Source of the DNA: Patescibacteria group bacterium
GTDB taxonomy: Bacteria > Patescibacteriota > Patescibacteriia > Magasanikbacterales > GWA2-37-8
DNA: 64,000 nt
NCBI GenBank assembly: GCA_041649475.1
Contig: JBAZNA010000001.1
Coordinates: forward strand, 750,594-814,593
Reading direction: 5' to 3'
Made by a program: the position numbers and the translations under genes. The notes beneath the pieces are model-generated. The model searched no databases and was not told where the DNA came from. It saw only the letters and a program-made list of their open reading frames with translations. Shown here piece by piece: positions 5,999 to 35,370 of the stretch. The stretch's first letter is position 1; each line of letters begins with the position of its first letter.

Positions 5999-6020
5999 TT
6001 ACTTAGGGATATATTATACT
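5992..6020 (+). promoter_or_regulatory. Sigma70-type promoter, TTGACA-17-TATACT, upstream of rpmA
   Basis: TTGACA at 5992-5997, a 17-nt spacer, then TATACT at 6015-6020, about 37 nt upstream of the rpmA ATG. Confidence 0.45.
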
Positions 6021-6056
6021 ATTTTTACCAAATAATCAATAATAATTTAGCATAAT

Positions 6057-9107: not shown

Positions 9108-10091
9108 TTATACAGAAATTACTGATTTTGGCAAGTTAAGCAGCCCGGCGCGCCTTTCATAAACTCCCACAGGCCAGCCGGACATTTTGGCCAAATCGCC
9201 ATAAGCCACGACCAGGGGCAGAAGGATAAAGCCAAAAATTTTATTAAATAAAGAAAGTTTGGCAGAGAAAACCAACCATCTTGACCAGAATTTTTTCATA
9301 TAGCCAAGCAAACCCGCTAATATAGCCAATCCGAACCACCAGCTAACTTCGAAAGTTAAAAACAACAAAATTATAGCTAGGGCATAGAAAATATACCTGA
9401 TCATTTGTCTATAAAACCATAACTTACCATGACCATCGCTTCGAGTATAACCGAACAGCTGTTTAAAGTAGGATCTTAAATTTGCGCGCGGGCGCCAAAA
9501 GACCAGCGGTTCGCGGATATACTCTGTTCTGATCCCCAACTGAAGAATTTTTAAATCAAAAATTACGTCTTCACAAAGCGGTATCCATTCCGGATATCCG
9601 CCCACTCGCTGCCATAATTCTTTCTTAAAAGCCACGGAACGGCTCGATGGCAACCAATTTTGTTTAAATTCAGCCGGAGCCGGAGTAGTTGCGGCCGCTA
9701 TTAAATATCGCGCCAAACCATCGTCCGACTTAAGCCATGGTCCAAAACCAGTGGCCGAAAAACTGCTTTTTCCGGACAAAATCGGTTCGGTCAATTTTTT
9801 AAACCAGTTCACATCATAAGTACAGCCGGCATCAGTGACTGCGATTATGTCCCCCGCCGCATGCTCAATCGCAAAATTTCTGCCCACAGAGATATTGCCC
9901 GGGTGTTGCCACAGTTTTATCAGGTTGTTGTTGGTATGTGTCTTTGAGAGGAGCATCTCCCAGGTGCCGTCATTTGAACCCCCGTCTACAACAATTATTT
10001 CATCCGGCAAAATGGTTTGAGACAAAATACCGCTTAACCAAGCGGATATATTGTTTTTTTCATTTAAAACGGTTATAATTAAGGAAATCAT
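9108..10091 (-). CDS. Family 2 glycosyltransferase with a C-terminal membrane anchor
   Basis: MISLIITVLNEKNNI...IIVVDGGSNDGT is the GT2 N-terminus; the C-terminal 80 aa are hydrophobic. Confidence 0.7.
   Translation of the reverse strand: MISLIITVLNEKNNISAWLSGILSQTILPDEIIVVDGGSNDGTWEMLLSKTHTNNNLIKLWQHPGNISVGRNFAIEHAAGDIIAVTDAGCTYDVNWFKKLTEPILSGKSSFSATGFGPWLKSDDGLARYLIAAATTPAPAEFKQNWLPSSRSVAFKKELWQRVGGYPEWIPLCEDVIFDLKILQLGIRTEYIREPLVFWRPRANLRSYFKQLFGYTRSDGHGKLWFYRQMIRYIFYALAIILLFLTFEVSWWFGLAILAGLLGYMKKFWSRWLVFSAKLSLFNKIFGFILLPLVVAYGDLAKMSGWPVGVYERRAGLLNLPKSVISV
10051..10079 (+). promoter_or_regulatory. Candidate sigma70 promoter (TTGTTT-17-TATAAT) for the plus-strand GT4 gene
   Basis: TTGTTT at 10051-10056, a 17-nt spacer, then TATAAT at 10074-10079, about 38 nt upstream of the ATG at 10117. 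It lies inside the 5' end of the divergent GT2 gene. Confidence 0.3.
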
Positions 10092-19911: not shown

Positions 19912-21111
19912 TTATAATTTGTATTTAAAGTAGAGAACATCGCCGGTAGTGCTAAAATTTGTTCTATTCTTCCAGAAGTAATCCCAGGTGCACGAAATGT
20001 TATTTTTACACAGGTCCATAATGGTGAAAAGGGTCGCGTAACGCAGGGTGCTTTGGATGATGTATGGCGTAATCATAGCCAAAACGACCATGCCCACGGC
20101 AATATGTCTGTACCAGCGGCCTTTCATATATACCCTATAAATGCCATAGCAGGCAATAGGGACAAAAAACCAGGCGGAAATAAATACTGTCCGGGCGACA
20201 AACAGCGACCACAGGTAATAAGACATGCTTGAAGGTATAACCGCCAATAGATAAATTTTTATGTTTCTATCAAGCGTCCGCCAATTTTTAATCAGAAAGT
20301 ATAAACCAACTATAATAAACAGCCACAAAATGTTATAGGTGCTGGCATGGACGCCAAACCATTTGAACAGGGTGTAATTGTCCGTCGTGTATGTTTGCCA
20401 GTTGAATGTAAACCATTGCAGGGAGCTGTAATGAATGGCGCTCCCCCGAAACGAGTTAACAATGATTGTCGCCAGCGGAAAAACAGAAAATCTGATAAAA
20501 TTAAACGCTCTTTCTTTCCAGGAAACTTTATCAAGCAGAAATAAAATACCGACAAACAGCGCGCCCATGCAACCGCTTTCCTTTGTCAGTACCCCAAAAG
20601 CCACCGCGATGCCGCCTAAAAAAAGCCAATTCTTATTTTTAGTATTTTCCCACCATCTCCAGCCGGCGTATATGGTGAGTAAAAACCAGAAATAACCGCC
20701 AATATCCTGAACCTGGGTCAAACCGTAACGTACCATGGCGTATCCACTTATCACAATCAGGGCAGAAGTGAAGCCGATGAAATTACTTTTAAATACCCGT
20801 CTGATCAGACCATAAGTTAAAAACACGAGGCCGTAATAAAAAATGATATTGGTCATGATTAAACCCTGTTCCGCGGTCAAAAATCTGAAAATGGTCGCGC
20901 CCATTACCGCATAAAAGGGATTAAGATACCGGGCCGGGACGAAAAAGAAAAACGACATGTGTTCACCTCGAAAAAATCTGATGAATTCAATAAAACTGTA
21001 AGTGTCGTTGTTTGGGTGAAAACCATACAACGCGGCGAATAGGGCCAAGTTCAGAGAAGCCAACAAAAAGAGCCAAATAAGTATTTTATGTTTCTCAATT
21101 TTTTCTAACAT
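19912..21111 (-). CDS. Polytopic membrane protein, possible GT-C-type glycosyltransferase or polymerase
   Basis: 399 aa with about 11 TM segments, aromatic-rich, no soluble domain. Confidence 0.35.
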   Translation of the reverse strand: MLEKIEKHKILIWLFLLASLNLALFAALYGFHPNNDTYSFIEFIRFFRGEHMSFFFFVPARYLNPFYAVMGATIFRFLTAEQGLIMTNIIFYYGLVFLTYGLIRRVFKSNFIGFTSALIVISGYAMVRYGLTQVQDIGGYFWFLLTIYAGWRWWENTKNKNWLFLGGIAVAFGVLTKESGCMGALFVGILFLLDKVSWKERAFNFIRFSVFPLATIIVNSFRGSAIHYSSLQWFTFNWQTYTTDNYTLFKWFGVHASTYNILWLFIIVGLYFLIKNWRTLDRNIKIYLLAVIPSSMSYYLWSLFVARTVFISAWFFVPIACYGIYRVYMKGRWYRHIAVGMVVLAMITPYIIQSTLRYATLFTIMDLCKNNISCTWDYFWKNRTNFSTTGDVLYFKYKL

Positions 21112-21125
21112 AATAAAAAATTATT

Positions 21126-21815
21126 TTATATTTTTATTCTATATTTTAATAATGTCCAAATTGCGACTAACTCATCACGCCAACAAATTTTCTTGCCTTC
21201 TGCCTTATGCCGGGGCCGGTAGGAAATAGGCACTTCCGAGATTTTTATTCCGCGCAGGGCCGTAAGCGCGGTCACTTCGGGGCAGAACTCAAAACGGCGG
21301 CAATGCAAATCTAAATTTTTTAGAAAATCGGTTTTAAACATTTTATAACAAGTCGGCTCGTCGGTTAATTTTTGTCCGTATAATAGGTTGGCTAAAATCG
21401 TGAGCAACCATCCACCAAAATAATACAACAGTCCTGAATATTGTGTATTTTCTTCTTTTAGGCGTCTTGAACCATAAAGAACCAACAACCCCTCGCTGAT
21501 CATTTTTTCCATCATCGGTTTAAAATCACTTGGATCATACTCCAAATCAGCATCTTGGATCACAACATAATCGCCGGTGGCTTCTTTTAATCCGCTTCGA
21601 ATCGCCGCCCCCTTTCCCTGGTTCTGGTCATGAAAAAGCACTCTGCCCCAGCCATTTGAACTCTTAAGAAATTCGCGCGTCCCGTCCACGGAGCAATCAT
21701 CAACAATAATTATTTCTTTTTCAACGCCGGCCAAATCCAAATCACTCAATTTTGTTAAAATCTCGGTGATGGTACTTTTTTCGTTATAAACCGGAACGAT
21801 TACTGAAAGCTTCAC
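21126..21815 (-). CDS. Family 2 glycosyltransferase (polyprenyl-phosphate sugar transferase-like) with a C-terminal TM
   Basis: MKLSVIVPVYNEKSTITEIL...IIIVDDCSVDGT. Confidence 0.7.
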   Translation of the reverse strand: MKLSVIVPVYNEKSTITEILTKLSDLDLAGVEKEIIIVDDCSVDGTREFLKSSNGWGRVLFHDQNQGKGAAIRSGLKEATGDYVVIQDADLEYDPSDFKPMMEKMISEGLLVLYGSRRLKEENTQYSGLLYYFGGWLLTILANLLYGQKLTDEPTCYKMFKTDFLKNLDLHCRRFEFCPEVTALTALRGIKISEVPISYRPRHKAEGKKICWRDELVAIWTLLKYRIKI

Positions 21816-21821
21816 AGGCCT

Positions 21822-21965
21822 TTAAAATATCGTGTAAATAAAGGGCGCGAGCGGCGAGGTCTGGGCAAAAACCAAAAGAACACCAAACAAAATCAAAATA
21901 ATTAAAATTGGCGCCAGCCACCAGGCCTTTCTGATTTTTAAAAAATTCCAGAGCTGCTTTAACAT
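21822..21965 (-). CDS. 47-aa conserved small membrane protein (DUF5989-like; a typical partner of O-carbamoyltransferase loci)
   Basis: Not in the ORF track because it is under 60 aa. Hand translation gives MLKQLWNFLKIRKAWWLAPILIILILFGVLLVFAQTSPLAPFIYTIF*. It has an amphipathic N-terminus, a single TM segment and a ...APFIYT(I/L)F C-terminus. Confidence 0.5.
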   Translation of the reverse strand: MLKQLWNFLKIRKAWWLAPILIILILFGVLLVFAQTSPLAPFIYTIF

Positions 21966-22009
21966 GTTGATCATAAAATTATTTACTAGCCCGAAGGGCG
22001 TTTAAAAGC

Positions 22010-23191
22010 TTATTTATAAAAAGAATCAAAAATAAATTTCGCTAATACATCGGATACCACATCGTGTCCACCTTGTGAAAAGTGCCCCCACCCATTTTTA
22101 TACATCTCCTTGCCGTCAGATACTTCTTTCTCCATTGTTTCCCGTAAATTTATCATTTTTATCGAAGGATCTAATCCGGCAATTAATCTGTCTTCAAATG
22201 CCTTTGGATTAAAATCAACATTTTTTAATCCGGGATACTGATCGAGGTATGAATTTAATACATTTTTATCAACCGTCATGCCTTGCGGAATAAACATGAG
22301 CGCGAACTTAACGCCATCTTTGTCCAGCTGTTTTTTTAAATTATCCAGAAGATCAATACTAAATTGTAAATACTTCGAACGCTGCTCATCCAACGGAGTA
22401 ATGTAATAATAATCATCATAAGGAATAACCAGTCCATTTTCACCCTTAGCCGGCGGACGATATAAACCGAATTTAACGGCAAAATCATACAATACCGGAC
22501 TGCCCCTTACTATCCGATCAAAAAACCTGATAATGGCTGACATTCTGTATATCCTATCCTTAACTGATACAAAGTTATTTATCTGTGTTGAGGCGTATTG
22601 AGGAAAAGTGTTCCATGATTCTTTTGAAGCCAACATCGCATCCTTGTATTTGTAGCTATAACTATTATCAGTAGCGTCATTTTGAAGATAAAAAGCTAAA
22701 ACCACGACATCGGGATGATATTTTTGGGCGTACTTTTCATAATATTTCATCTGGTCCACTGTTCCCGTACCGCCAATACCGAAGTTTAATACTTCAACTT
22801 TATTGTATGTTGAACTGGGATTTGTAAAAAGTAAATCTTGAAATTTTTTGCTTAATTGATATACAAAAGTTCTATTGTAATCGACCCCGGTCGCCTCAAC
22901 ATACGAATCTCCCAAAACCACGATTCGCAAGGTGCCGCTGGCCTTTTCTTCGCTAAAATCATCACCTAAAAATCCTAAACTATTAGATTTAACATGGAAA
23001 TATTTTAATTCTTCATTATCAAACAAGTTCCTGTCTAAATTTGGTTTCAAAACCGCCATGCCGTCTTTGTTTATTCTCCAAATTGAGACATAAGTTTGAG
23101 TTTCAAAGAGGTGGAGAATACATTCAATCGCGACCAAGGTCAGTAAAACCGAAATAATCAAAGTTAGCCACCTTTTTTTAGTTTCGCTCAT
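22010..23191 (-). CDS. Membrane-anchored SGNH/GDSL-like protein (possible polysaccharide O-acyl-transferase or esterase, AlgX/AlgJ-like)
   Basis: N-terminal TM helix, then RIVVLGDSYVEATG (GDS(x) block I) and a C-terminal GWGHFSQGGHD. Confidence 0.4.
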   Translation of the reverse strand: MSETKKRWLTLIISVLLTLVAIECILHLFETQTYVSIWRINKDGMAVLKPNLDRNLFDNEELKYFHVKSNSLGFLGDDFSEEKASGTLRIVVLGDSYVEATGVDYNRTFVYQLSKKFQDLLFTNPSSTYNKVEVLNFGIGGTGTVDQMKYYEKYAQKYHPDVVVLAFYLQNDATDNSYSYKYKDAMLASKESWNTFPQYASTQINNFVSVKDRIYRMSAIIRFFDRIVRGSPVLYDFAVKFGLYRPPAKGENGLVIPYDDYYYITPLDEQRSKYLQFSIDLLDNLKKQLDKDGVKFALMFIPQGMTVDKNVLNSYLDQYPGLKNVDFNPKAFEDRLIAGLDPSIKMINLRETMEKEVSDGKEMYKNGWGHFSQGGHDVVSDVLAKFIFDSFYK

Positions 23192-23244
23192 AAATTAAGT
23201 AAAAATATGCCTATATTGTAGCACTTAAAAACGCTTTCTGTCAA

Positions 23245-25032
23245 TTAATCAAGTTTAAATTTGCCCAAATAAGTTCTCATTTTTTCCTCATCCACCAGAT
23301 GCTGGTTGTCTTTCTTGGAAATCAGATAATTACCCAGAACCAGATAGTCCATGAAGGTGTTTAAAAACGTGCTCAACGCGTCTTTGGGCGACATCACTAT
23401 GGGCTCGCCGCGGACATTAAAGGAGGTATTGATAATAACCGGACAACCGGTTTTTTGGTAAAAGGCGTTAATTATATCGTAATAACGCGGATTCTGCGCT
23501 CTGCTGACCGACTGGATGCGGGCCGAATTATCAACATGAGTGATGGCCGGGATGTCCGTTCTCTTTACCTGTGCGACCAAAAGCATATAGGGCGTCGGGT
23601 ATTTTATGTCAAAACATTCGCTGTTTTTATCCTCAAGCACGGTCGGCGCGAACGGCCGGAAACTCTCCCTGAATTTGATTTTCAAATTCACCTTCTGCCA
23701 ATTTTCCTTGTTGCGGGCGTCAGCGATGATTGAGCGATTGCCCAAAGCGCGCGGGCCGTATTCCATGCGCCCACCAAAAAGCCCGATGACATTACTGCCG
23801 GTAATTAAATCAGAAATCTTATCAATCAGCTCGCTGTCATTTAAATATTGATACTTAATTTTTTCGTTATCAAGGAAATTTTTAATTTCTTCATTACTGT
23901 ATTCCGGACCCAAGTAAGCGTTGACCATTACCTTCTGGTTCGACGGCGGGAACTGGTGACTCAAAACCTGGTAATAAACATACAGAGCACTGCCGACCGC
24001 GCCACCGGCGTCGCCTGAAGCCGGCTGGATGTATAAATTCTCAAACCAGCCCTTCTCCAAGATTTTGCCATTGGCCACGCAGTTTAAAGCCACCCCGCCG
24101 GCCATGCACAAATTTTTTGACGGGTGCACTTGCCGGGCATGGTCAACAATTTTTAAAACGATTTCATTGGTGATCTTCTGCAAAGCCGCGGCAATATCTT
24201 TTTCGCGCTGGGTCGGGGCCGTGCCGAATTTTACAGCCGGACCGCCGAAAAGCTGGTCAAAATTCTTATTGGTCATGCGTAAACCAGCTTCATAGGAAAA
24301 ATACTTCATGTTCAATTTAAAACTGCCGTCGTCTTTAACTGCAACCAATTCTTTAAATTTATCGTAATATTTTTCCGGATCTCCGTATGGAGCCAAGCCC
24401 ATTACTTTATATTCGGCGCTATTAACTTTAAAACCTAAATAGTAGGTCAAAGCCGAATAAAGAAGGCCTAAAGAATCCGGGAACTCAATAGTTTCTGTCA
24501 GTGTCAGTTTATTGCCTTGGCCATAGCCGATGGTGGTGGTATCATACTCACCCACTCCATCCATCGTAACCACCACCGCGTCCTCAAAATCAGAACAATA
24601 ATAGGCGCTGGCCGCGTGCGCGTAGTGATGCTCGGTAAACAAAATTTCGCCCTTGTACCCGCCCAGGGCTTTTCTGATCCGGCTTTCGACCCAAAGTTTA
24701 CTTTTGACAAACACCATTATTGCTTTGAGAAAGGAAATAAACCCTCGCGGCCAGGTGTTGATGTAGGTTTTGAGCAGGCGTTCAAATTTTAAAAGCGGCT
24801 TCTCATAAAAAACCACGTAATCGAGACGATTGACTTCTACGCCCCCGGCCTTAAGACAATAGTCCACCGCGTTCTTCGGCAAATCAGAATCATGTTTTAC
24901 GCGCGTAAAACGCTCTTCGTGGGCCGCCGCGATTACTACCCCATTTTTGATCAAAGCCGCGGCTGAATCATGATAGTCAAACGAAAGCCCCAGAATGTAA
25001 ATATCCTGCTCGTTTATGTTAAATTCATTCAT
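23245..25032 (-). CDS. NodU/CmcH-family O-carbamoyltransferase
   Basis: ILGLSFDYHDSAAALIKNGVVIAAAHEERFTRVKHDSDLP is a NodU/CmcH N-terminal signature; the 595 aa length fits. Confidence 0.8.
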   Translation of the reverse strand: MNEFNINEQDIYILGLSFDYHDSAAALIKNGVVIAAAHEERFTRVKHDSDLPKNAVDYCLKAGGVEVNRLDYVVFYEKPLLKFERLLKTYINTWPRGFISFLKAIMVFVKSKLWVESRIRKALGGYKGEILFTEHHYAHAASAYYCSDFEDAVVVTMDGVGEYDTTTIGYGQGNKLTLTETIEFPDSLGLLYSALTYYLGFKVNSAEYKVMGLAPYGDPEKYYDKFKELVAVKDDGSFKLNMKYFSYEAGLRMTNKNFDQLFGGPAVKFGTAPTQREKDIAAALQKITNEIVLKIVDHARQVHPSKNLCMAGGVALNCVANGKILEKGWFENLYIQPASGDAGGAVGSALYVYYQVLSHQFPPSNQKVMVNAYLGPEYSNEEIKNFLDNEKIKYQYLNDSELIDKISDLITGSNVIGLFGGRMEYGPRALGNRSIIADARNKENWQKVNLKIKFRESFRPFAPTVLEDKNSECFDIKYPTPYMLLVAQVKRTDIPAITHVDNSARIQSVSRAQNPRYYDIINAFYQKTGCPVIINTSFNVRGEPIVMSPKDALSTFLNTFMDYLVLGNYLISKKDNQHLVDEEKMRTYLGKFKLD

Positions 25033-25033
25033 A

Positions 25034-25267
25034 CTAAAATTGGAATTTTAAATTCTCCAGATCGGCCGGTCGGTTTTCTTTGATTTTCCAATACGATAAT
25101 GGCTGATTTTTATGGCCTTTGAGTAACCGGACAAGGCCAAAAGGCAAAGCGTATAAACCGATGATTATAAAATAAAAAACCGTCAAAATAATAAAACCGC
25201 TAATCGTCCCCAAAACATGGCTAAATTTCATCCAATACTTATACAGTGTTTTAAAAAAATTTTTCAT
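25034..25267 (-). CDS. Small membrane protein (possible SxtJ-like carbamoyltransferase-associated protein)
   Basis: 77 aa with 1-2 TM segments; its stop lies 1 nt from the carbamoyltransferase start. The assignment is tentative. Confidence 0.35.
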   Translation of the reverse strand: MKNFFKTLYKYWMKFSHVLGTISGFIILTVFYFIIIGLYALPFGLVRLLKGHKNQPLSYWKIKENRPADLENLKFQF

Positions 25268-25278
25268 AATCGTTAAAA

Positions 25279-26223
25279 TTATACTTTTTTAAGCAGCCAC
25301 AACATAATGGCCTTTTGAATATGCATTCTATTTTCGGCTTGGTCAAAAATTATTGAGTTTTTATGGTCTATAGCATCACGGCTGATTTCATAGCCGATGT
25401 GGCAGGGCATACAATGCATAATTCTGGCCTGCGGCGCGTATTTGTCAATTATTTCGGCATTGAGCTGATACGGCTTGAGCACACGCAGACGGCGATCATA
25501 TTCCGCCTGGAATTCCGGCAGAACTTTACCGTCTTTAAAAAATTCCATATCCATCCAAGTATCAGTATGGACAAAATCGGCTCCGGCCATGGCCTCGGCC
25601 AAATTTAAATTTTTAGAAACTTTTCCGGTCGCCTCGGCCATCGCGTTAAGTTCGCCATCCACACTGGACGCGTTAACCTCCGGAGCAGCCAGGCACACCT
25701 CTATCCCCAACTGCGCGCACGCCAGTTTCAAAGTATTGGAAACATTATTTTCAATACCGAGCCAGACGATTTTTTTGATTTTATCCAATCCGCCGGCGTG
25801 CTCCATCATCGTTAATATATCGCCCAAGGCCTGGCAAGGATGATATTTTTCACTGCAAGCGTCTATTACCGGAATCTGATTAAATGAAGCGGCGGTTTGC
25901 ACATCCACGGCTTTCAAGGCCCGAAACATCAACATTTGCCCAAATCTCATTACCGCCCTGATCTCGTCTTTAAAATCGGTTAAAGAAAACTGTGAAGTGC
26001 GCGAATCCAGATAAATCGCGTGCCCGCCCAGCTCGGTTGTGCCGGCTTCAAAAGACAGACGCGTGCGGGTTGATGATTTCTGAAACAGCATTATCAAAGT
26101 TTTGTTCTCAAAATATTTTGGAAAATTATTTTCGGTTCGGTCTTTTTTGAGTTTGGCCGCCAAATCCAAAATTTCCCAAATTTCTTCCTTGGTAAAATCT
26201 TTTAAAGAAATCAAATGACGCAT
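25279..26223 (-). CDS. Ornithine/aspartate carbamoyltransferase-family enzyme (OTCase-like)
   Basis: LIMLFQKSSTRTRLSFEAGTTELGGHAIYL contains the STRTR carbamoyl-phosphate motif, plus ...YHPCQALGD... and HCMPCH (the HCLP-type motif). Confidence 0.8.
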   Translation of the reverse strand: MRHLISLKDFTKEEIWEILDLAAKLKKDRTENNFPKYFENKTLIMLFQKSSTRTRLSFEAGTTELGGHAIYLDSRTSQFSLTDFKDEIRAVMRFGQMLMFRALKAVDVQTAASFNQIPVIDACSEKYHPCQALGDILTMMEHAGGLDKIKKIVWLGIENNVSNTLKLACAQLGIEVCLAAPEVNASSVDGELNAMAEATGKVSKNLNLAEAMAGADFVHTDTWMDMEFFKDGKVLPEFQAEYDRRLRVLKPYQLNAEIIDKYAPQARIMHCMPCHIGYEISRDAIDHKNSIIFDQAENRMHIQKAIMLWLLKKV

Positions 26224-26233
26224 AAAATTCTAT

Positions 26234-27082
26234 CTACGCCGCCCCACCAGCTGCTTTTTTCTTTAAGCTCCTGTCTATCTGCCATATTTGGTAGTAAAGA
26301 GAAAAATAACAGACAAAATTCTGCAGTGCCAGACTCCACCCGTTTACGCCGTGCTTCCACAAGCCATTTTTGAGCTGGGCTAAAGTAGTTTTTGGGGGAT
26401 AAGTTATTATATAATACAGCGGGTGTTTTCTGATTTTCATAGCGTGTTTTATCCATTTGTCCGGAGTAGTATTATAGCATTCGTAAGTAAAAAGCTCTGG
26501 GAAAAATCCTTTGGCCAAAGCTGGGATCCAATAATTGGCTTTTCTCATGGTCTCCTTCCAAGAGATATTATTATAATTTGGCCGATGATGTAAAATCAAA
26601 TTAGCTTTTTTAAGTCCTCCATCCACCTCACCCACCTCTTGAACCACGCCGACATAACGATAATTCTTTCTCCGGAAAAAAAGCGGCTTCTGTATGCCGG
26701 CAAAGGCGATGGCCCGTTTACCGTCCCAAAATTCCCAGTCAAAGATATATCCGTTGACGTTATCGTCGGACCCTAAGAGCGCGCGGATTTTGCCGTGATC
26801 GGCAACATCAAAATATTCATCGGCATCAAAACGCAACAACCATTCGCAGGTGGCCTGGGCAAAGGCAAAGGCCAGATGTCCTTCAACCACGCACTGATGC
26901 TCGCGCACGAAAATTTTGTCAGTATATTGTTTAGCAATTTCCAAAGTCCGGTCGGTGCAGGGGCCGTCGTGAATTATTATAATTTCATCAGCCAGACCCT
27001 TAATGCTGCTGAGACACCTTTCAATAATTTTTTCTTCGTTATAAATCACTAAACACGCGGAGATTGTTACTGGTTTGCTCAT
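26234..27082 (-). CDS. Family 2 glycosyltransferase
   Basis: ISACLVIYNEEKIIERCLSSI...IIIIHDGPCTDRT. Confidence 0.65.
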   Translation of the reverse strand: MSKPVTISACLVIYNEEKIIERCLSSIKGLADEIIIIHDGPCTDRTLEIAKQYTDKIFVREHQCVVEGHLAFAFAQATCEWLLRFDADEYFDVADHGKIRALLGSDDNVNGYIFDWEFWDGKRAIAFAGIQKPLFFRRKNYRYVGVVQEVGEVDGGLKKANLILHHRPNYNNISWKETMRKANYWIPALAKGFFPELFTYECYNTTPDKWIKHAMKIRKHPLYYIITYPPKTTLAQLKNGLWKHGVNGWSLALQNFVCYFSLYYQIWQIDRSLKKKAAGGAA

Positions 27083-27819
27083 ATTGAAGCTGGGATATTA
27101 AACTGTTGTATTGCTTTTTGCGCGTCATTTAAAAAGTTAACCACGGTCTCTTTGGTACGAGCGGACAAAAGCGACTTGGCGATAACATCCGGCGGAATGG
27201 TGAGAATATGAGCGCCGCTCTTAGCCCATAATTCCACATTCTCCGGAGTACGAACCGCACCGACGATAATTTCAATGTTTTTATAATTATGAAAATCCAG
27301 CCACTGCCTCACTTCTTTTAATACCTTTTGGGCTTGTTCCACCCCATGCTCCTCGGAAATCCGGCCGCCAAAAATGCTGATATAATGAGTTTTTTTAACT
27401 GCTGCTTTGGCCAAACCGGCATTTATGGCTTTAGTGGCCATAATGGCCTGATTAAAAGTCATCATCGCGGTCACATTGACCGATACGCCCTCGCTGACAA
27501 GCTGATAAATAACCGGCAAAAGAGAGACGCCGTTTTGATCAGTAACTGTTATTTTTACCGTAATATTATCCGCCCAGGTATTATATTTTCTGGCCTGATT
27601 TAAAATTTCATTGGGATTATCAGTAGTCACTTCCACGCTTAACGAAAGCGGCGCGATTAATCCGGCTATTTCAACTGCTCGAGCTTTTATACCTTCTTCT
27701 CCTCCCGTAACTCCCGCCTTTAAACAAATACTCGGATTAGTAGTAACTCCGTCACAGAGCCCCCAACTAATATACTTTTCAATCTCCTTGACGTCCGCGC
27801 TGTCAATAAACACCTTCAT
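27079..27819 (-). CDS. Transaldolase / fructose-6-phosphate aldolase family (short TalC/FSA type)
   Basis: MKVFIDSADVKEIEKYISWGLCDGVTTNPS is the hallmark transaldolase/FSA N-terminus; 246 aa. Confidence 0.75.
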   Translation of the reverse strand: MKVFIDSADVKEIEKYISWGLCDGVTTNPSICLKAGVTGGEEGIKARAVEIAGLIAPLSLSVEVTTDNPNEILNQARKYNTWADNITVKITVTDQNGVSLLPVIYQLVSEGVSVNVTAMMTFNQAIMATKAINAGLAKAAVKKTHYISIFGGRISEEHGVEQAQKVLKEVRQWLDFHNYKNIEIIVGAVRTPENVELWAKSGAHILTIPPDVIAKSLLSARTKETVVNFLNDAQKAIQQFNIPASI

Positions 27820-27864
27820 AAGTTAAATCATCCTTAATAATTAAATTGATTGTCATAAAAAGCT

Positions 27865-28593
27865 CTAGATTAATCCATTTTCACGCACATACTCTTCCAC
27901 TTCTTTGTATTTCTCCAAATCGTCCATGCATTTCGTATATTCACCGCATTCATAGCTGTAAAATTTCAAACCACGGTTAACAACATCCGGCATCAAATTT
28001 TTCCCGAGTTCATAGTAAGTATTAGCCGGAACAAATTTTAAAATTTCTTTTCTTAATATAAACACGCCCTTCATCCGATAAGCATTCATGTATTTTTCTG
28101 TGTGGGGTTTGGGATGAATCGCTTTGTAACAGCCATCAGGACCGACTTCAGCCACATCCGCGTCCTGGTAGTTCTCGGTTTTCTGCATTTTCTGCATACC
28201 GATAATATCCGGGTGTTTGGCAAACTCCGCTTCCATTTTGGAGTAATCCATCAAACTGAACATGTCTCCGTAAATGACAAAAAAAGTGTCATCCAGCTGT
28301 TTCTCAAAATCTTTTACCCCACCGGCGGTTCCCAAGGGTTCCTTTTCTATAAAATAATTTATTTTTACTCCCCATTTGGCTCCGTCGCCAAAATAATTCC
28401 GGACCACATCAGGAAGATAAAAAAGGTTGATAAAAAATTCGGTCACGCCATGTTTTTTAAACTGTTCAATATTCCATTCCAAAAGCGGCTTGCCGGAAAA
28501 AGGAATCATTGCTTTGGGCATAGTATCAGTGAGCGGCCTCATGCGAGTCCCCAAACCAGCACACAGAATAACGGCTTGTTTTATTTTTGACAT
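27865..28593 (-). CDS. Sugar-1-phosphate nucleotidyltransferase, HddC-like (D-glycero-alpha-D-manno-heptose-1-P guanylyltransferase)
   Basis: AVILCAGLGTRMRPLTDTMPKAMIPFSGKPLLEW is the NTP-transferase motif. It sits among the gmhA, hddA and gmhB homologues. Confidence 0.6.
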   Translation of the reverse strand: MSKIKQAVILCAGLGTRMRPLTDTMPKAMIPFSGKPLLEWNIEQFKKHGVTEFFINLFYLPDVVRNYFGDGAKWGVKINYFIEKEPLGTAGGVKDFEKQLDDTFFVIYGDMFSLMDYSKMEAEFAKHPDIIGMQKMQKTENYQDADVAEVGPDGCYKAIHPKPHTEKYMNAYRMKGVFILRKEILKFVPANTYYELGKNLMPDVVNRGLKFYSYECGEYTKCMDDLEKYKEVEEYVRENGLI

Positions 28594-29150
28594 ATTTTAA
28601 CGGCTTCCACCAAATTTTTTACGGTAAAATCCGGCTTCACATGTTGGTATTTCTGATCCAAACGCGCGTGACCCGGGCCAGTTTTCACCAAAATCGTTTT
28701 GAGGCCGGCTTTTTTGCCCGAAACTACATCTATAAGCGCGTCACCGATCATAAAACTCTTCTTCGGGTTTATTTTTAAATCCTTTAATCCTTTAAGGATC
28801 ATCCCCGGTTCCGGCTTACGGCAACGGCAGCGCAAACGATACTCTGGCAAATTCGCTTCCGGGTGGTGTGGACAATAATATATCCCGTCAATACGCGCTC
28901 CTTTGCCGTGCAAACGCCTGATTAGCACGCCATGGATTTCGTCAACTTCTTTTGGTCCGATGATACCGCGCGCAATCACCGGCTGATTAGTCACTACAAT
29001 TACGAAAAATCCTAGTTTGTTCAGTTTGCTAATTGCCCGCGCCGTACCAGGAAGAAGGCGCAGGTCTTTAACTTTATGCATTAAGTCAACCTGTCTGATA
29101 ATCGTTCCGTCCCGATCTAAAAATACCGCTTTATGGTCTCTTTTTTCCAT
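28581..29150 (-). CDS. gmhB: D-glycero-D-manno-heptose 1,7-bisphosphate phosphatase (HAD-IIIA)
   Basis: VFLDRDGTI (DxDxT) and the Zn-binding CPHHP...C.C.KP motif typical of GmhB. Confidence 0.75.
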   Translation of the reverse strand: MEKRDHKAVFLDRDGTIIRQVDLMHKVKDLRLLPGTARAISKLNKLGFFVIVVTNQPVIARGIIGPKEVDEIHGVLIRRLHGKGARIDGIYYCPHHPEANLPEYRLRCRCRKPEPGMILKGLKDLKINPKKSFMIGDALIDVVSGKKAGLKTILVKTGPGHARLDQKYQHVKPDFTVKNLVEAVKICQK

Positions 29151-29162
29151 AAAAGTACCGCC

Positions 29163-30089
29163 TTACGCATTGATAACATTCTTTTTAATGTAATCAATCT
29201 GGATTTTAAGGCCTTCTTCAATCGTGGTTTTCGGATTCCAGCCCAAACTCTTGAGCTTGGAACAGTCACCTAAATTTACCTGGGCCTCGCCCTCCAGATT
29301 ATCTTTATAGATCGGATCTAGATTTACCCCGGTTATATCCCTGATCATTTTATAAATTTCATTAATGGAGTAATTCACGCCACAACCGATATTAAAAACT
29401 TCGTTGTTGGCTCGGTCATCTTTCATCAAGAGCAGGTGTACGTCATTGACATCGTCAACATAAACAAAGTCGCGCCTCTTTTCACCATCTCCATAAATAA
29501 TTGGGTTCTCGCCGCGTAGAAGTTTGATTATGAGGGCGGACATAACCGGCGGAATCGTTCTCCTATAATCCTGTCTGGGGCCGTAGACATTAAAATAACG
29601 TACGGCCACGGTCTTTAAATTGCGAAACTTCTGGAAGCCCTGGGCATAAATATTGGTGGTCATCTTGCTAAGCGCGTAAAAGCTGTGCGGGTGCACGTCG
29701 GATTCCGGAGTTGGGTAAATTTCTGAACCCTCATACAGAGCCGAGGTTTCGGCATAAATGATTTTTTTGATTCCCGCCCTGGCACTAGCTTCAAATACAT
29801 TGACAGTGCCGGTGCTGTTATTATCACTGGCGTCTACCGGATCCTGTTGGCACTCGCTGACACTACTTTTAGCAGCCAGATGAAACACGTATTCAACGTC
29901 TTTAAATAACGGATAAATGTCTTTTGACCTTATATCCAATTTATGAAAATCAACACCTTCCGGAACCTGGGTTACAACCCCGGCGGAAAGGTTGTCTATA
30001 CCGATTACCTCATATCCCTCCTCAAGCAAACGAACTGCTAAGTTGCTTCCTATAAAACCGGCAATGCCTGTGATGAGAACTTTAGCCAT
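29163..30089 (-). CDS. NAD-dependent epimerase/dehydratase (candidate GDP-heptose modifying SDR)
   Basis: MAKVLITGIAGFIGSNLAVRLLEEGYEV and SFYALSKMTTNIY (YxxxK). Confidence 0.7.
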   Translation of the reverse strand: MAKVLITGIAGFIGSNLAVRLLEEGYEVIGIDNLSAGVVTQVPEGVDFHKLDIRSKDIYPLFKDVEYVFHLAAKSSVSECQQDPVDASDNNSTGTVNVFEASARAGIKKIIYAETSALYEGSEIYPTPESDVHPHSFYALSKMTTNIYAQGFQKFRNLKTVAVRYFNVYGPRQDYRRTIPPVMSALIIKLLRGENPIIYGDGEKRRDFVYVDDVNDVHLLLMKDDRANNEVFNIGCGVNYSINEIYKMIRDITGVNLDPIYKDNLEGEAQVNLGDCSKLKSLGWNPKTTIEEGLKIQIDYIKKNVINA

Positions 30090-30121
30090 ATTTGTATAAA
30101 ATTATATAAAAAGGTGCAGAT

Positions 30122-30151
30122 ATTATATACTATAGCACCCACACAACGCAA
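30122..30151 (-). promoter_or_regulatory. Candidate internal promoter (TTGCGT-18-TATAAT on the minus strand) in the 77-bp gap upstream of the SDR gene
   Basis: On the minus strand: TTGCGT (complement of 30146-30151), an 18-nt spacer, then TATAAT (complement of 30122-30127). This is the largest intergenic gap in the middle of the array. Confidence 0.25.
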
Positions 30152-30166
30152 GTTTAAAAATCGAGT

Positions 30167-30781
30167 CTAAACCTTAGAAGATTGCTGTTTCCGGCTCACC
30201 AAATGATCAAAATAATCCTGAAAATAAGTTGTCATCAAATGAAGAATAACCCCATGCGCGCCTTCTACGACTCCGTATTTTCCTTTTTCGGTCCGGACCA
30301 TAATCTTTGCGTCTGCCAATTCATTGAGTTTGCCGCCATCAAAACCCGATAACCCGATTACCGGCACATGGCGGCTCTTGGCCAATTCAACCGCTTTGAT
30401 AATATTAGCTGAATTTCCTGAACTGCTGATAGCTATAATGCAATCACCCTCCCTTAAATAGTTTTGCAAGGGACCGGAGAAGACCGTATCAAAGCCAACG
30501 TCATTGGCCCAAGCCGACATCTCTTCTTCGGTGGTGGGTAAACGTATGGCTTGAAACCTTTTGGAATGTAAATCCAAATTATGACTGAAAACAGTTTTAT
30601 TAAAATCACTCACCCAGTGAGTAGCCAAGGCCAGGGATCCCCCGTTGCCAAAAATATATATGCGTCCATCCCGTTCATAAACCGATTGCACTATATTGAT
30701 GGCCTTGGCAATTTCTTCCGAGGGCAAGGCCTTGAGGGCGTAATCAGTTTCGGAAATATATTTAGAGATGTAATCTTTCAT
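30167..30781 (-). CDS. gmhA: Phosphoheptose isomerase (SIS domain)
   Basis: IYIFGNGGSLALATHWVSDF...IAISSSGNSANIIKAVELAK...GLSGFDGGKL closely matches GmhA. Confidence 0.8.
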   Translation of the reverse strand: MKDYISKYISETDYALKALPSEEIAKAINIVQSVYERDGRIYIFGNGGSLALATHWVSDFNKTVFSHNLDLHSKRFQAIRLPTTEEEMSAWANDVGFDTVFSGPLQNYLREGDCIIAISSSGNSANIIKAVELAKSRHVPVIGLSGFDGGKLNELADAKIMVRTEKGKYGVVEGAHGVILHLMTTYFQDYFDHLVSRKQQSSKV

Positions 30782-30786
30782 AAAGA

Positions 30787-31794
30787 TTAAGATACATTAT
30801 CGCTGAACAGAATATCCGTTCCGGATTGAGTAAAATTAAACGGGATAGCCTGCGCTTCCGATAGATTATTTTCCGCGGCCAACTTTTTTAAACTGGCTTT
30901 AATCTGTTCGTGTTTATCGAGCGGTGCCAAAAACAACAGACATCCTCCCCCGCCCGCGCCCAGAATTTTTCCGCCCCAGGCGCCGTTTTTGATCCCGGTT
31001 TCATACATTACGTCAATTAACGAATTTGAAACCGCCGAAGCTAAACTCCTTTTGCGCAACCAGCCCTCGTGGAGCATCGCCGCCATGCCTTCCAGATCCC
31101 CGGCCATTAGTTTGTCACGAAAATCATAAACCGAATCGGACATTTTTTTGTATGTTTCAAAATTGCTCTCAATTTTTGTTTTCTGTTCTCCCAAAACAGA
31201 GGCAGCACTTCTGGTAATGCCGGTAAAAAATAAAATGAGATGATCTTCAAATTTCGCTCTCTTCTTATAATCCAATAAAATTGGCTCAATTGTTACCGTC
31301 TCATCGGAGTTGAATTGAAATATATTAAATCCGCCGAACGAGGCCGCGTATTGATCTTGTTTGCCGATCGGTTCTTTTAATAACTCGATTTCCAAACGGC
31401 AAGCGGCTTCGGCGGCTTCAATGCGGCTCATACTCTTGCCCAACAAATAGTTTAACCCTTTAACCAACGCGACAGAAAATCCGGACGAAGAACCCAAACC
31501 GGTTTTTGCGGGAATATCCGCGGAACTGGTAATTTCCAATCCGTGTTTAATGCCTAAATCCAACAGGATTCCCCGCGCCCGGTCATGTTTCAGTTCACTG
31601 GGATCAGCTACAATTTCAGTCGTATTATATTTCATTATAAATTTATTCAAAAGTCCCGTCGGATTTATTGACAGGTAAATAAATTTATTAATTGTTGTGG
31701 AAATGACCCTGCCCGGATATTTATGATAAAAATCCGGCAGATCCGTTCCTCCTCCCACAAAGCTAATACGTAGTGGCGCTCTGACTATAATCAT
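30787..31794 (-). CDS. hddA: GHMP-family sugar kinase, HddA-like D-glycero-D-manno-heptose-7-phosphate kinase
   Basis: MIIVRAPLRISFVGGGTDLPDFY (HddA N-terminus) and the GHMP motif PAKTGLGSSSGFSVA. Confidence 0.7.
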   Translation of the reverse strand: MIIVRAPLRISFVGGGTDLPDFYHKYPGRVISTTINKFIYLSINPTGLLNKFIMKYNTTEIVADPSELKHDRARGILLDLGIKHGLEITSSADIPAKTGLGSSSGFSVALVKGLNYLLGKSMSRIEAAEAACRLEIELLKEPIGKQDQYAASFGGFNIFQFNSDETVTIEPILLDYKKRAKFEDHLILFFTGITRSAASVLGEQKTKIESNFETYKKMSDSVYDFRDKLMAGDLEGMAAMLHEGWLRKRSLASAVSNSLIDVMYETGIKNGAWGGKILGAGGGGCLLFLAPLDKHEQIKASLKKLAAENNLSEAQAIPFNFTQSGTDILFSDNVS

Positions 31795-33165: not shown

Positions 33166-35370
33166 TTACTTCTTTGCCCTGCAAACAGCCACCATGAAGC
33201 GTGATTTTTTAATATTATTGTCATCTTGATAAAAGACAATATCACTGGGCTCTAAAACCGGCTTTATCCGGTTTATGATCTTTAGTTTGATAGTATTGCT
33301 TGTTTTATAACTGATGATGTTTAGATGGCGCAGGCCGAGCAAAACAGGATTTAATATCTTCCAGAACCAGCGATCATTATATACAGGCGTGCTTTGGCCA
33401 TAAAATTTTTCAATAACAAAAAATTCGCTAAGCGCGCTTTTAAATTCATCAACTGCCATCTCAAAAACATGATAAGGGTTGTTGGGTTTTTGGCCGGCTG
33501 CCGTACCCGGTGAATAAATTTCCCTATTTGGAGTTGAAATGTAAACTAGACCGTCATTTCTTACGACTCTTTTTATCTCCGACAAAAACTTTCGCCAATC
33601 CTGAACATGTTCAAATACCTCAAAAGCCGCCGCGACATCAAAAAAATTATCTGCAAAGGGAATACCTGTGCCGGACCCGCAGGAAAATTCTACATTGGGA
33701 GCGGACCAATTTTCTTTAGCATAACTGATAGCTTCAGCGGAAACATCAACACCGTATATTTTTTTGAATTTTTTGGATAATTCATGACTGCCATGTCCGG
33801 AGCCGCAGCCAATATCCAAAACAGTGCTCTCCGGGTTGCCGGAAACCAAATTATAGCGCGCCAAATGTTCAACTAAATTATTCCGGGATAAATTGCTTTT
33901 GGAATCCAATCTCTCTCCGCCGAATCTATTTCCTTCCGCTTTATTTTGTTTTGCAATATTATCTTTGGGTTTCACCCGGCAATACTTCAAAAGAAATTCC
34001 AGTATAAATTTCTCAACGCCAAAATATTTGAAATAACGCTTCCGCCATCTGATGTCGCATAGTTTTTCAAACGGTTTGACTAACCAACGCCTCATTCCGG
34101 GAAAATTGATGTCTGTTTTGGAGCCCGGCTTTTGGTGGAAATGAAAACCGGCAATATGATATACGCTTTGCATTTCGTTTGACCCGGAATTGCTGACCGT
34201 AAAATTTTCCCACTCGCTCATTCTTTCAGGCACTCTCATCCCGTGGGCTACTGCCACCGAATGCAATGTGATTCCCGGAAAAGGCGTGAAATTATATATG
34301 GGTATATTGCAATTTCCTTTGTGAATCTCATACAATTGGTCGGCAAAAGCGAAGGTTTCATTCCTCTCTGCAAGCGTTTCCGTGGGAAAACCAATAATCA
34401 AATAATATCTCGGCCTGATGTTTGAATTTTCAGATAAACATTTGGCCGCATGCAGTATGTCTTCTTTGGTTTCTGCCTTATTGATGAACTTCATTAATCT
34501 TTCACTTCCGGTTTCCACTCCCATGGCAATATCGGTAACTCCCAGTTCTGATAATTTTCTGGCAAATTCAGGTCCGTTGACTTTAAAATTATCAGCTCGA
34601 AAAGAGGGATGCCATTTAATATTTCGCTCTTTTAAAATTTTACCGACTTCCAATATTCTTGATTCCCGGCCTAAGTAATCATCTCCGATTTGTATCCATT
34701 TTATTTGCATGTGCGACAAAAGCACGTCCAGCCACTGCGCCCAAAGCTGCAAATCTAACATTCTGTATTTTTTATCCTTATCAGTGCTGTTAACGCAAAA
34801 ACCGCAACTATACGGACACCCTCTTGATGAGGGAAACATTATGTCACTCGTTTGGTTGGCGAGCTTAAATAATCTTAGAGTTTTATCTGTGATCGGGCAA
34901 ACAAAATCAACCGCATCCAGTTTACCTGCCGGTATATATTTTACATCCCGGCCCACGATGCCTTTGGGAATAATATTTCTATCCTGAAAAAAAGCTAAAA
35001 AACTCGGCAGGGTTATTTCACCTTCCCCCACGGCAACATAATCTATAAAATCTTCTTTTATGCACTGCTCCGGCATAAGAGAAGCATGGACTCCGCCAAA
35101 AATGGTGGTTTTATTATTTTCCTTCGCCAATTTTAAAATCTCCGCCGCGTACTTCAATTGTATACCGGTAAAACTTGAGACCCCGACAACATCAGACCAT
35201 TTAATCAACTCAAGAAGTTTTTCCTTTGAATCCCAGCGCTCATCCCAATATTCCACTTCATATCCCGCCTTTTCGGCCGCCGCGCCCGTATAAATAATAC
35301 TTAGAGGACTATTTTTTTGCGGGGATGACTCCGTAGGGGTTGGCTGACATAATAAAACCTTCGGCTTCAT
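33166..35370 (-). CDS. B12-binding radical-SAM enzyme fused to a C-terminal class I SAM methyltransferase domain
   Basis: N-terminal cobalamin-binding Rossmann segment; CxxxCxxC as SSRGCPYSCGFCVNS; C-terminal VLDIGCGSGHGSHEL...IYGVDVS (motif I/II). Confidence 0.75.
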   Translation of the reverse strand: MKPKVLLCQPTPTESSPQKNSPLSIIYTGAAAEKAGYEVEYWDERWDSKEKLLELIKWSDVVGVSSFTGIQLKYAAEILKLAKENNKTTIFGGVHASLMPEQCIKEDFIDYVAVGEGEITLPSFLAFFQDRNIIPKGIVGRDVKYIPAGKLDAVDFVCPITDKTLRLFKLANQTSDIMFPSSRGCPYSCGFCVNSTDKDKKYRMLDLQLWAQWLDVLLSHMQIKWIQIGDDYLGRESRILEVGKILKERNIKWHPSFRADNFKVNGPEFARKLSELGVTDIAMGVETGSERLMKFINKAETKEDILHAAKCLSENSNIRPRYYLIIGFPTETLAERNETFAFADQLYEIHKGNCNIPIYNFTPFPGITLHSVAVAHGMRVPERMSEWENFTVSNSGSNEMQSVYHIAGFHFHQKPGSKTDINFPGMRRWLVKPFEKLCDIRWRKRYFKYFGVEKFILEFLLKYCRVKPKDNIAKQNKAEGNRFGGERLDSKSNLSRNNLVEHLARYNLVSGNPESTVLDIGCGSGHGSHELSKKFKKIYGVDVSAEAISYAKENWSAPNVEFSCGSGTGIPFADNFFDVAAAFEVFEHVQDWRKFLSEIKRVVRNDGLVYISTPNREIYSPGTAAGQKPNNPYHVFEMAVDEFKSALSEFFVIEKFYGQSTPVYNDRWFWKILNPVLLGLRHLNIISYKTSNTIKLKIINRIKPVLEPSDIVFYQDDNNIKKSRFMVAVCRAKK

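Follow-up and report, generated by a model that had tools for sequence, protein, structure and literature searches.

A DUF5989 microprotein ending in an FxYxxF motif: a candidate tyrosine shuttle beside a carbamoyltransferase in a patescibacterial glycan cluster

What does a membrane peptide of only 50 residues do in the middle of a surface-glycan gene cluster? The question is raised by a small minus-strand open reading frame (ORF) at 21822-21974 of the stretch analyzed here, a window of 64,000 nucleotides (64 kb) from contig JBAZNA010000001.1 of a Patescibacteria group bacterium (assembly GCA_041649475.1). The ORF is a real gene under purifying selection and its product belongs to the DUF5989 family. 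It is one of four parts of a module, together with a carbamoyltransferase, an SxtJ-family protein and a membrane-anchored SGNH enzyme of the AlgX/AlgJ type. Judged from its residues, the C-terminal tail agrees with FxYxxF, the acyl-shuttle motif known from DltX and bacterial MBOATs, a point that was not part of the original prediction for this locus. From its predicted features, the system is best described as a DltX-like tyrosine-motif microprotein that is tied to a carbamoyltransferase and SxtJ, and not to an MBOAT.

The gene and its product

The gene and the elements of its product, with the helices taken from an AlphaFold2 (AF2) model and its predicted local distance difference test (pLDDT), are located as follows:
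21822..21974, minus strand: DUF5989 microprotein gene, 50 aa plus TAA stop; Pfam PF19451 match, identical public protein, purifying selection
21933..21971, minus strand: basic amphipathic helix, residues 2-14, INMLKQLWNFLKI; AF2 helix, predicted cytoplasmic face
21858..21929, minus strand: single transmembrane (TM) helix, residues 16-39, KAWWLAPILIILILFGVLLVFAQT; AF2, block of highest pLDDT
21825..21842, minus strand: C-terminal hexapeptide F-I-Y-T-I-F-COOH, residues 45-50; exact FxYxxF

The original prediction, which was made from the sequence, described an ATG-to-TAA ORF at 21822-21965 of the minus strand, and its 47-aa translation, MLKQLWNFLKIRKAWWLAPILIILILFGVLLVFAQTSPLAPFIYTIF, matches exactly. 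This form starts at the second in-frame ATG, at 21965. The ORF opens 9 nt further upstream, at 21974, which yields the 50-aa product MINMLKQLWNFLKIRKAWWLAPILIILILFGVLLVFAQTSPLAPFIYTIF (beginning MINMLKQ), and it is this longer form that has an identical public counterpart. Both starts are possible, because between 5 and 11 residues precede the conserved Trp across the family members. The spacer in which the ORF lies measures 194 bp, as had been predicted, from the start of a glycosyltransferase family 2 (GT2) gene at 21815 to the stop of the SGNH gene at 22010. Once the ORF is placed, 6 bp and 35 bp of it are left unassigned. The sole larger apparent gap of the array, at 5999-6315, is occupied by a plus-strand bL27 gene. 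The ORF had also been called untracked. It was indeed missing from the gene list behind the prediction, but the public GenBank annotation already has the gene: the identical 50-aa protein is named 'DUF5989 family protein [Patescibacteria group bacterium]' in NCBI and is derived from a Patescibacteria metagenome-assembled genome, where it lies on a 963-kb contig. The gene is thus not unannotated and, as a gene, it is an ordinary member of a known DUF family.

A reading as a chance ORF in an intergenic spacer, without a functional gene, was also weighed. Fifty codons can arise randomly at 41% GC, so that the length alone is weak evidence, and neither ATG is preceded by a clear Shine-Dalgarno sequence; the latter is also missing before several neighboring genes of the window. 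It is the match to PF19451 that places the ORF beyond chance, with 77.4 bits (Pfam gathering cutoff: 27 bits), E 8.4e-22 and profile positions 2-49 of 49 covered. A comparison with the DUF5989 profile had been proposed as a check, and it establishes the peptide as a family member. Public data hold 6,022 cluster representatives of this family. The codon comparison agrees: against two orthologues (77-78% identical) the frame is kept and third positions dominate, with 13/3/28 and 9/4/23 changes at codon positions 1/2/3. Among the differing codons, 25 and 16 are synonymous, versus 10 non-synonymous in each comparison. The chance reading is already refuted, and its probability is next to nothing.

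In the AF2 model (pLDDT 81), helices span residues 2-14 and 16-39, followed by a short terminal helix at 43-49. Four basic residues precede the TM helix and none follow it. From this distribution and the positive-inside rule we infer a cytoplasmic N-terminus and a C-terminal tail on the outer side. W19, P22, P44, F45, I46 and Y47 are invariant in the family alignment, while W9, F11, K16, L20, L33, A37, S40, A43, T48 and F50 are nearly so. The window peptide has the features of the family (about 50 aa, the domain at the C-terminus, W19, P22 and the terminal APFIYT[IL]F), and no difference from the family in sequence features was found. The amphipathic N-terminus, single TM segment and APFIYT[IL]F tail of the original prediction are all recovered in the family alignment and the model. 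A search of the PDB returned no solved DUF5989 relative. Two other identities for such a peptide were rejected. A precursor of a ribosomally synthesized and post-translationally modified peptide (RiPP) is at odds with the near-invariant sequence across phyla, which is unlike RiPP cores. A C-terminal sorting signal of the PEP-CTERM/LPXTG type would have the reverse order of elements, since here a basic cluster is followed by the TM helix and then by the motif.

The terminal motif and the conserved module

The hexapeptide FxYxxF with an invariant C-terminal Tyr has been defined as the 'acyl shuttle' motif for DltX and PatA (PMC12148441). In the Dlt pathway, the MBOAT DltB transfers D-alanine from DltC to the Tyr of the microprotein DltX, from which the SGNH protein DltD passes it onward to lipoteichoic acid (PMC12148441). 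In the PatA/PatB system it is the MBOAT itself that bears the motif as a fused part (FIYANF in Neisseria), and acetate is carried to the SGNH protein PatB, for which O-acetyl-FIYANF has been assayed as a peptide donor; according to the same authors, pathways other than Dlt have no DltX-like microprotein (PMC12148441). In the 48-aa DltX of Bacillus thuringiensis, a basic N-terminus and a single TM helix precede a tail that ends FIYNEF (PMC5541007).

The consensus C-terminus of the DUF5989 family is F-I-Y-[TSA]-[ILV]-F-COOH. The Tyr, encoded at 21834-21836 in the window (Tyr47), is present in all 356 members that were fetched, and 343 of the 356 have the exact F-x-Y-x-x-F. A PF[IL]Y anchor is carried by 354 members, and 328 of these end with the hexapeptide. 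A motif-anchored scan with one genome per species found relatives in at least 566 genomes, from Gemmatimonadota, Acidobacteriota, Pseudomonadota including SAR11, Omnitrophota, Planctomycetota, Nitrospirota, Cyanobacteria, Actinomycetota and Patescibacteria. Magnetospirillum sp. UT-4 (L026), Pararhizobium (L038) and Prochlorococcus marinus strains (P0336, P0353) are among the culturable carriers. The 6,022 cluster representatives were obtained by a profile search of 1.84 billion, and the domain nearly always ends at the last residue. A tblastn search of plasmids and phages with the peptide gave no match, although the low-complexity filter may mask the TM helix. In a scan of 2.9 million viral contigs a single DUF5989 locus was found, so the family is not a phage trait.

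From the genome scan, 80 DUF5989-anchored loci were retained, and their partner genes were found by iterative hidden Markov model searches seeded with the window proteins. For the reverse test, 41 loci anchored on relatives of the window carbamoyltransferase were taken from metagenomes. A six-frame census of all loci and the window showed that 133 of 22,825 ORFs end in FxYxxF, and 121 of these 133 are DUF5989. The 12 others, out of about 22,700 non-DUF5989 ORFs, include two MBOATs with a fused motif (ends KFIYFDF and PFIYFQF, in loci L061 and L075) and four microproteins beside motif-less MBOATs: EVFIYNNF in three identical copies (L081-L083) and EVFIYSTF (L118). By another count, the DltX-like microproteins of this kind number five. 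The microprotein of L081 has a sub-threshold Pfam DltX match (E 7e-4).

The resemblance to DltX (PF12459) is one of layout: a protein of about 50 aa whose basic N-terminus is cytoplasmic and whose single TM helix leads to a short tail on the outside, here by prediction. Both proteins end in FxYxxF with the invariant Tyr (FIYNEF in DltX, FIYTIF in the window peptide) and both have two partners of like kind, an SGNH-type enzyme with a TM anchor and an activating enzyme that is cytoplasmic and ATP-dependent. In contrast to DltX, DUF5989 has no detectable sequence homology beyond the tail and comes without an MBOAT or carrier protein, its partners being the carbamoyltransferase and the small SxtJ. 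The presumed cargo is carbamoyl instead of an aminoacyl or acetyl group. Moreover, DUF5989 occurs in Gram-negative and candidate phyla, whereas DltX is found in Firmicutes. A second likeness is to the terminal module of MBOATs of the PatA and AlgI type, where a cytoplasmic peripheral helix and a TM helix are likewise followed by a terminal FxYxxF. The predicted layout of DUF5989 corresponds to PatA helices alpha16 and alpha17 plus the motif (PMC12148441), and the MBOAT ends of L061 and L075 are close to APFIYTIF. In DUF5989, however, this module is free-standing: no MBOAT or AT3 acyltransferase is present in the 64-kb window, and the MBOAT with its catalytic His that would be expected to load the Tyr is missing there.

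MBOATs occur in three of the 80 DUF5989-anchored loci (L005, L061, L075). Two full sets stand side by side in L118: a motif-less MBOAT with a DltX-like microprotein and an SGNH protein, and a carbamoyltransferase with SxtJ, DUF5989 and a second SGNH protein. The same pairing of MBOAT/DltX-like and carbamoyltransferase/SxtJ/DUF5989 is seen in L081-83, where the MBOAT set adds an acyl carrier protein, a phosphopantetheinyl transferase and an FkbH-type loader; a 374-aa protein upstream of the MBOAT was not recognized as SGNH. Because both sets are held in parallel in these loci, DUF5989 is the shuttle-like microprotein of the carbamoyltransferase/SxtJ set and not of the MBOAT.

As an observation in its own right, the DltX-like microprotein genes of these Patescibacteria-type glycan clusters are unannotated (9555-9686, plus strand, in L081-L083; 9725-9940, minus strand, in L118). 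With its acyl carrier protein, phosphopantetheinyl transferase and FkbH-like loader, the L081 MBOAT resembles a Dlt-like acylation system outside the Firmicutes.

The partners of the microprotein in the window are encoded upstream of it on the same strand:
25034..25267, minus strand: short SxtJ-like membrane protein, 77 aa; PF19588 21.4 bits, below the 24.4 cutoff
23245..25032, minus strand: NodU/CmcH/TobZ-type ATP-dependent carbamoyltransferase, 595 aa, cytoplasmic; Carbam_trans_N and Carbam_trans_C
22010..23191, minus strand: SGNH/GDSL enzyme, 393 aa; Lipase_GDSL; N-terminal TM anchor; GDS Ser96, Asn136, Asp172, His370

Their occurrence in the two sets of loci is as follows:
Carbamoyltransferase: 77 of 80 DUF5989-anchored loci; query in the 41 carbamoyltransferase-anchored loci
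SxtJ-family gene: 77 of 80 DUF5989-anchored loci; nearly all carbamoyltransferase-anchored loci that keep the upstream flank (not tallied)
SGNH homologue: 40 of 80 DUF5989-anchored loci; 31 of 41 carbamoyltransferase-anchored loci
DUF5989: query in the 80 loci; at least 30 of 41 carbamoyltransferase-anchored loci

The recurrence of the family beside carbamoyltransferase and SxtJ-like genes, which had been claimed together with a proposal to check co-occurrence, is thereby confirmed in independent loci. Carbamoyltransferase and SxtJ are missing from three loci, all of them contigs of 2-8 kb on which an SGNH gene lies next to DUF5989. Eleven carbamoyltransferase-anchored loci have no DUF5989, nine of them being cut off near the gene, while two (L104 and L114) are truly without it. 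The SxtJ neighbors of DUF5989 score 37-49 bits on Pfam SxtJ. DUF5989 usually follows SxtJ directly, with overlapping or abutting frames, and the SGNH gene is often translationally coupled to DUF5989. When the flanking ORFs were clustered without bias, no further widespread partner emerged, the groups reflecting either lineage-specific synteny or carbamoyltransferase shadow ORFs. Beside SxtJ and the carbamoyltransferase, no genuine small-ORF family other than DUF5989 is conserved.

In the window itself, the carbamoyltransferase and SxtJ-like genes lie within 3.5 kb upstream on the same strand. The peptide gene here, as in the window clade, follows the SGNH gene and not the SxtJ-like gene. The nearest loci, L126 (77% identity) and L130 (84%), have the window's order SxtJ-carbamoyltransferase-SGNH-DUF5989-GT2.

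The SxtJ-like protein of the window keeps the conserved core and the C-terminal QF, and it is without the two N-terminal TM helices of a typical SxtJ (127-146 aa). A phmmer search with this protein hit 23 SxtJ genes of other loci without iteration, and with iteration it reached 77 of the 80 loci. The relatives in L081-L088 have the same short form (78-88 aa). Such an ORF is easily missed, as it falls below the Pfam threshold. A metagenome representative of 150 aa, P0170, is a natural fusion of the SxtJ core (Pfam 33 bits) with DUF5989 (90.8 bits). As a single example and a possible assembly artefact, it is consistent with the two proteins acting as a unit, their junction ends being on the same side of the membrane. 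The single-sequence AF2 model of P0170 was poor (predicted template modeling score 0.31).

The carbamoyltransferase is similar from end to end to NovN (9s2t), GdmN and TobZ. The SGNH enzyme, by its sequence features, is presumed to be the external acceptor and transferase. In the alignments of SGNH partners (29-67 sequences), G94 and S96 are invariant or nearly so, D95, Asn136, Asp172 and His370 are found in at least 90%, and the N-terminal TM anchor is present in all partners that were inspected. Searched against the PDB, the family profile finds AlgJ, AlgX and B. cereus PatB1 in addition to generic SGNH esterases; a single-sequence search there gave only chance matches to reverse transcriptases. 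A Pfam ALGX match was obtained for 12 of 29 partners (best E 8.7e-11). The likeness is thus to PatB and AlgJ/AlgX, an enzyme class known to take acyl groups from tyrosine shuttles.

Two side observations concern the family outside the window. Paired DUF5989 ORFs lie upstream of SxtJ in five loci, in tandem without overlap in L115 and L116 and overlapping stop-to-stop in L100, L106 and L121. One member of every pair has the end FIY[TS][IL][IV], without the terminal Phe. In the SAR11 loci (L028, L033, L043, L046, L048-L050, L052, L055, L059, L064 and L065), carbamoyltransferase-SxtJ-DUF5989 forms a conserved syntenic block. Its neighbors in Pelagibacteraceae are metabolic genes (a thiamine diphosphate enzyme, a TauE-like permease, an M23 peptidase) and not glycosyltransferases, and the acceptor there may differ from a classical O-antigen or capsule.

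Candidate roles of the microprotein

The family has no assigned role, as the original prediction had stated. Its tail now gives a concrete hypothesis, in that it is an exact FxYxxF acyl-shuttle motif. Tyr47 would then be a tyrosine shuttle that passes a carbamoyl group from an SxtJ-held carbamoyltransferase to the external SGNH transferase, and we give this proposal somewhat less than an even chance. In the proposed sequence of events, SxtJ and the basic N-terminal helix of DUF5989 would keep the carbamoyltransferase at the membrane. The enzyme would form carbamoyl-AMP and carbamoylate Tyr47. The resulting O-carbamoyl-tyrosine, a reactive aryl carbamate, could hand its group to Ser96 of the SGNH enzyme. 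Aryl carbamates are good carbamoyl donors to serine hydrolases. Finally, the SGNH enzyme would attach the carbamoyl group to a surface glycan, the product of the 60-kb cluster in which the module lies. In this scheme the gene, its module and motif, the predicted layout and the kind of partner are shown, while loading, cargo and transfer are what we infer. The window encodes neither an MBOAT nor an AT3 protein that might load the Tyr in place of the carbamoyltransferase.

Several observations weigh against such a shuttle. The main gap is topological: the ATP-dependent carbamoyltransferase is cytoplasmic, whereas Tyr47 is predicted to lie outside, with no evident conduit through the membrane. 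Two Trp and one Tyr are the only conserved residues of this kind in SxtJ, which has no invariant His, Asp, Glu, Ser or Cys and, in the window clade, a single hydrophobic segment. NovN, GdmN and TobZ, the homologues of solved structure, need no partner to carbamoylate their soluble acceptors directly. In half of the DUF5989 loci an SGNH gene is missing within 8 kb, and L104 and L114 hold a carbamoyltransferase, SxtJ and SGNH but no DUF5989. Homology to DltX is likewise unsupported. The window peptide has no Pfam DltX match even at E<=10, where the B. thuringiensis DltX scores 75.7 bits, and hhalign aligns only the last 14 columns of DUF5989 and DltX (P 0.007, probability 5.5%). The resemblance may for this reason be convergent or coincidental. 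The literature search turned up no experimental work on the DUF5989 family, no paper that names DUF5989 or the string APFIYT and none that links the acyl-shuttle motif to carbamoyltransferases, SxtK or DUF5989; this search was incomplete and prior notice is possible.

The topological problem would be avoided if DUF5989 and SxtJ were a passive tether that anchors and stabilizes the soluble carbamoyltransferase on the cytoplasmic side. In that case a membrane-bound substrate, for example a polyprenyl-phosphate-linked sugar from the adjacent GT2, would be carbamoylated by the enzyme directly, and the tail would serve for helix packing only. An established eukaryotic example is given by DPM2 and DPM3, which tether the soluble catalytic subunit DPM1. 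There, too, a soluble transferase works at the membrane in the company of two very small membrane proteins, but there is no sequence relationship, the FxYxxF tail is left unexplained and the analogy holds for the tether alone. A tether would fit the near-universal co-occurrence with the carbamoyltransferase and SxtJ, as opposed to an SGNH gene in only half of the loci, and it would fit the basic amphipathic cytoplasmic segments that both small proteins carry. The lack of catalytic residues in SxtJ, the catalytic self-sufficiency of the homologous carbamoyltransferases and the GT2 and GT-C genes immediately downstream point the same way. It leaves unexplained, however, why the most conserved part of the family is a short tail across the membrane, why this tail ends exactly in FxYxxF, with a Tyr that never varies, and why an external, AlgX/AlgJ-like SGNH gene is frequently coupled to DUF5989 in translation. 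We consider the tether a possibility, but a rather unlikely one.

The cargo could also be another one. DUF5989 might be a DltX-like shuttle for acetyl or other acyl groups, loaded by an MBOAT or AT3 protein that is encoded elsewhere, with the linkage to the carbamoyltransferase reflecting co-regulated glycan decorations. All characterized FxYxxF shuttles are MBOAT-loaded (PMC12148441), and motif-less MBOATs are found in the same locus in relatives L081-83, L093, L119 and L118. Yet the universal partners of DUF5989 are the carbamoyltransferase and SxtJ, and among the 80 DUF5989-anchored loci MBOATs occur only in the three named above. Across all sets of loci, the MBOATs of L061 and L075 have their own fused motif, those of L081-83 and L118 have a separate DltX-like microprotein and the window encodes neither type of loader, all of which makes this account improbable. 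Still less probable is a transporter or flippase, in which the carbamoylated product, or else a lipid-linked intermediate, would cross the membrane by way of SxtJ and DUF5989. Both are membrane proteins that always co-occur, and two family members bear the JGI source name 'drug/metabolite transporter superfamily'. Nevertheless, the pair has only two hydrophobic segments in the window clade and no conserved charged or polar residues within the membrane, flippases of the Wzx and GtrA type are already present in the window and the saxitoxin (sxt) cluster has its own MATE exporters.

The carbamoyl shuttle can also be stated for the family as a whole. DUF5989 would then mark an MBOAT-independent branch of tyrosine shuttles, leading from an SxtJ-docked ATP-dependent carbamoyltransferase via O-carbamoyl-tyrosine and an external SGNH enzyme to surface glycans and, by extension, through SxtI/J/K/L to saxitoxin. 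In this wide form the proposal is tentative, and we would sooner expect it to fail than to hold.

Glycan context and the saxitoxin genes

The window is a single long surface-glycan cluster on the minus strand (the surrounding approximately 60 kb). It encodes many GT2, GT4 and GT-C glycosyltransferases, methyltransferases, sugar-nucleotide enzymes and a heptose-type pathway, as well as Wzx, a Wzy_C/ligase-like protein and GtrA. The elements next to the module are:
21126..21815, minus strand: GT2 glycosyltransferase, 229 aa; sub-threshold NCBIfam matches AglJ, dolichyl-phosphate hexose transferase, ArnC-like, PpgS
19912..21111, minus strand: GT-C/PMT-like membrane glycosyltransferase, 399 aa; PF02366 PMT E 4e-7; outer-face enzyme type
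23215..23244, minus strand: promoter-like site TTGACA-18-TACAAT, 11 of 12, extended -10 TG; consensus match only, in the 53-bp gap between carbamoyltransferase and SGNH genes

The GT2 resembles polyprenyl-phosphate sugar synthases. Its start lies 6 bp past the stop of the microprotein gene, with an AAAGG overlapping that stop, so it is probably part of the same transcription unit; the order DUF5989-GT2 recurs in L126 and L130. A GT2(230)+PMT(397) pair is also found in L085-L088. By their predicted functions, the GT2/GT-C pair and the GtrA/Wzx/Wzy genes show that the cluster already decorates its glycan on the outer face. The promoter-like site may start an SGNH-DUF5989-GT2-GT-C unit, which would split the module into two transcription units.

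Upstream of the ORF, the same-strand order is ornithine carbamoyltransferase, SxtJ-like, carbamoyltransferase, SGNH. The first of these (25279-26223, minus strand; TIGR00658 285 bits, above cutoff) is directly upstream of the SxtJ-like gene and, if run catabolically, could supply carbamoyl phosphate to the carbamoyltransferase. It was rejected as a conserved member of the module, being present in none of the 80 other DUF5989 loci. Further upstream, at 27079-31794 (minus strand), a transaldolase, nucleotidyltransferase, HAD phosphatase, epimerase, SIS isomerase and GHMP kinase are encoded in a row that looks like an NDP-heptose pathway. In Pseudomonas, heptose II of the lipopolysaccharide core is carbamoylated by WapO (PMC8005017). 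With this precedent and the adjoining NDP-heptose-like genes, a carbamoyl-heptose is one possible product. The cluster further contains two B12-binding radical SAM proteins (33166-35370 and 40048-42012, minus strand), the first fused to a class I methyltransferase domain, and the pair suggests unusual C-methylation or other radical chemistry on sugars. At 52434-55025 (minus strand), an 863-aa chain combines NAD epimerase/dehydratase, NeuB (nonulosonic acid synthase) and cupin domains.

A comparable set of genes is known from saxitoxin biosynthesis. In the sxt clusters, sxtI (carbamoyltransferase), sxtJ (399-441 nt), sxtK (162-165 nt) and sxtL (GDSL lipase) lie side by side (PMC2679770, PMC7073992). 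These are the same four types of gene as in the window, where an O-carbamoyltransferase, an SxtJ-family protein, a GDSL enzyme and, in place of the 53-54-aa ORF of sxt, the microprotein are contiguous at 21822-25267. The window differs in its gene order (J-I-L-K), in the short form of its SxtJ and in its context, which is glycan biosynthesis instead of an alkaloid pathway. We think that SxtK (ABI75101) is a DUF5989 member, going by its size and position only. A search with a cyanobacterial DUF5989 member (L080) returned only Prochlorococcus-like proteins and none that is named SxtK.

Every part of the DUF5989 interpretation in the original prediction that could be tested was borne out. If the motif is merely structural, the finding amounts to an ordinary DUF gene that was already annotated. 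If the tyrosine shuttle is real, DUF5989 and likewise SxtJ, SxtK and SxtL would obtain a testable role, a prospect that rests wholly on sequence inference. SxtJ and SxtK have stood in saxitoxin schemes since 2008, where they are uncharacterized and presumed to be partners of SxtI ('works with SxtI') or, without evidence, 'regulatory'. The acyl-tyrosine mechanism, only recently established for D-alanylation and O-acetylation, would also cover carbamoylation and a loader of a type other than MBOAT, and the SGNH 'lipases' beside these genes would be transferases and not decarbamoylases. Soil, marine and groundwater bacteria contribute thousands of protein clusters to the family, which would provide a genetic marker for surface-glycan carbamoylation in abundant uncultured lineages. 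The module would then represent a new covalent intermediate and a very widespread pathway of envelope modification, spread over at least 566 species genomes and 6,022 clusters that include SAR11 and Prochlorococcus.

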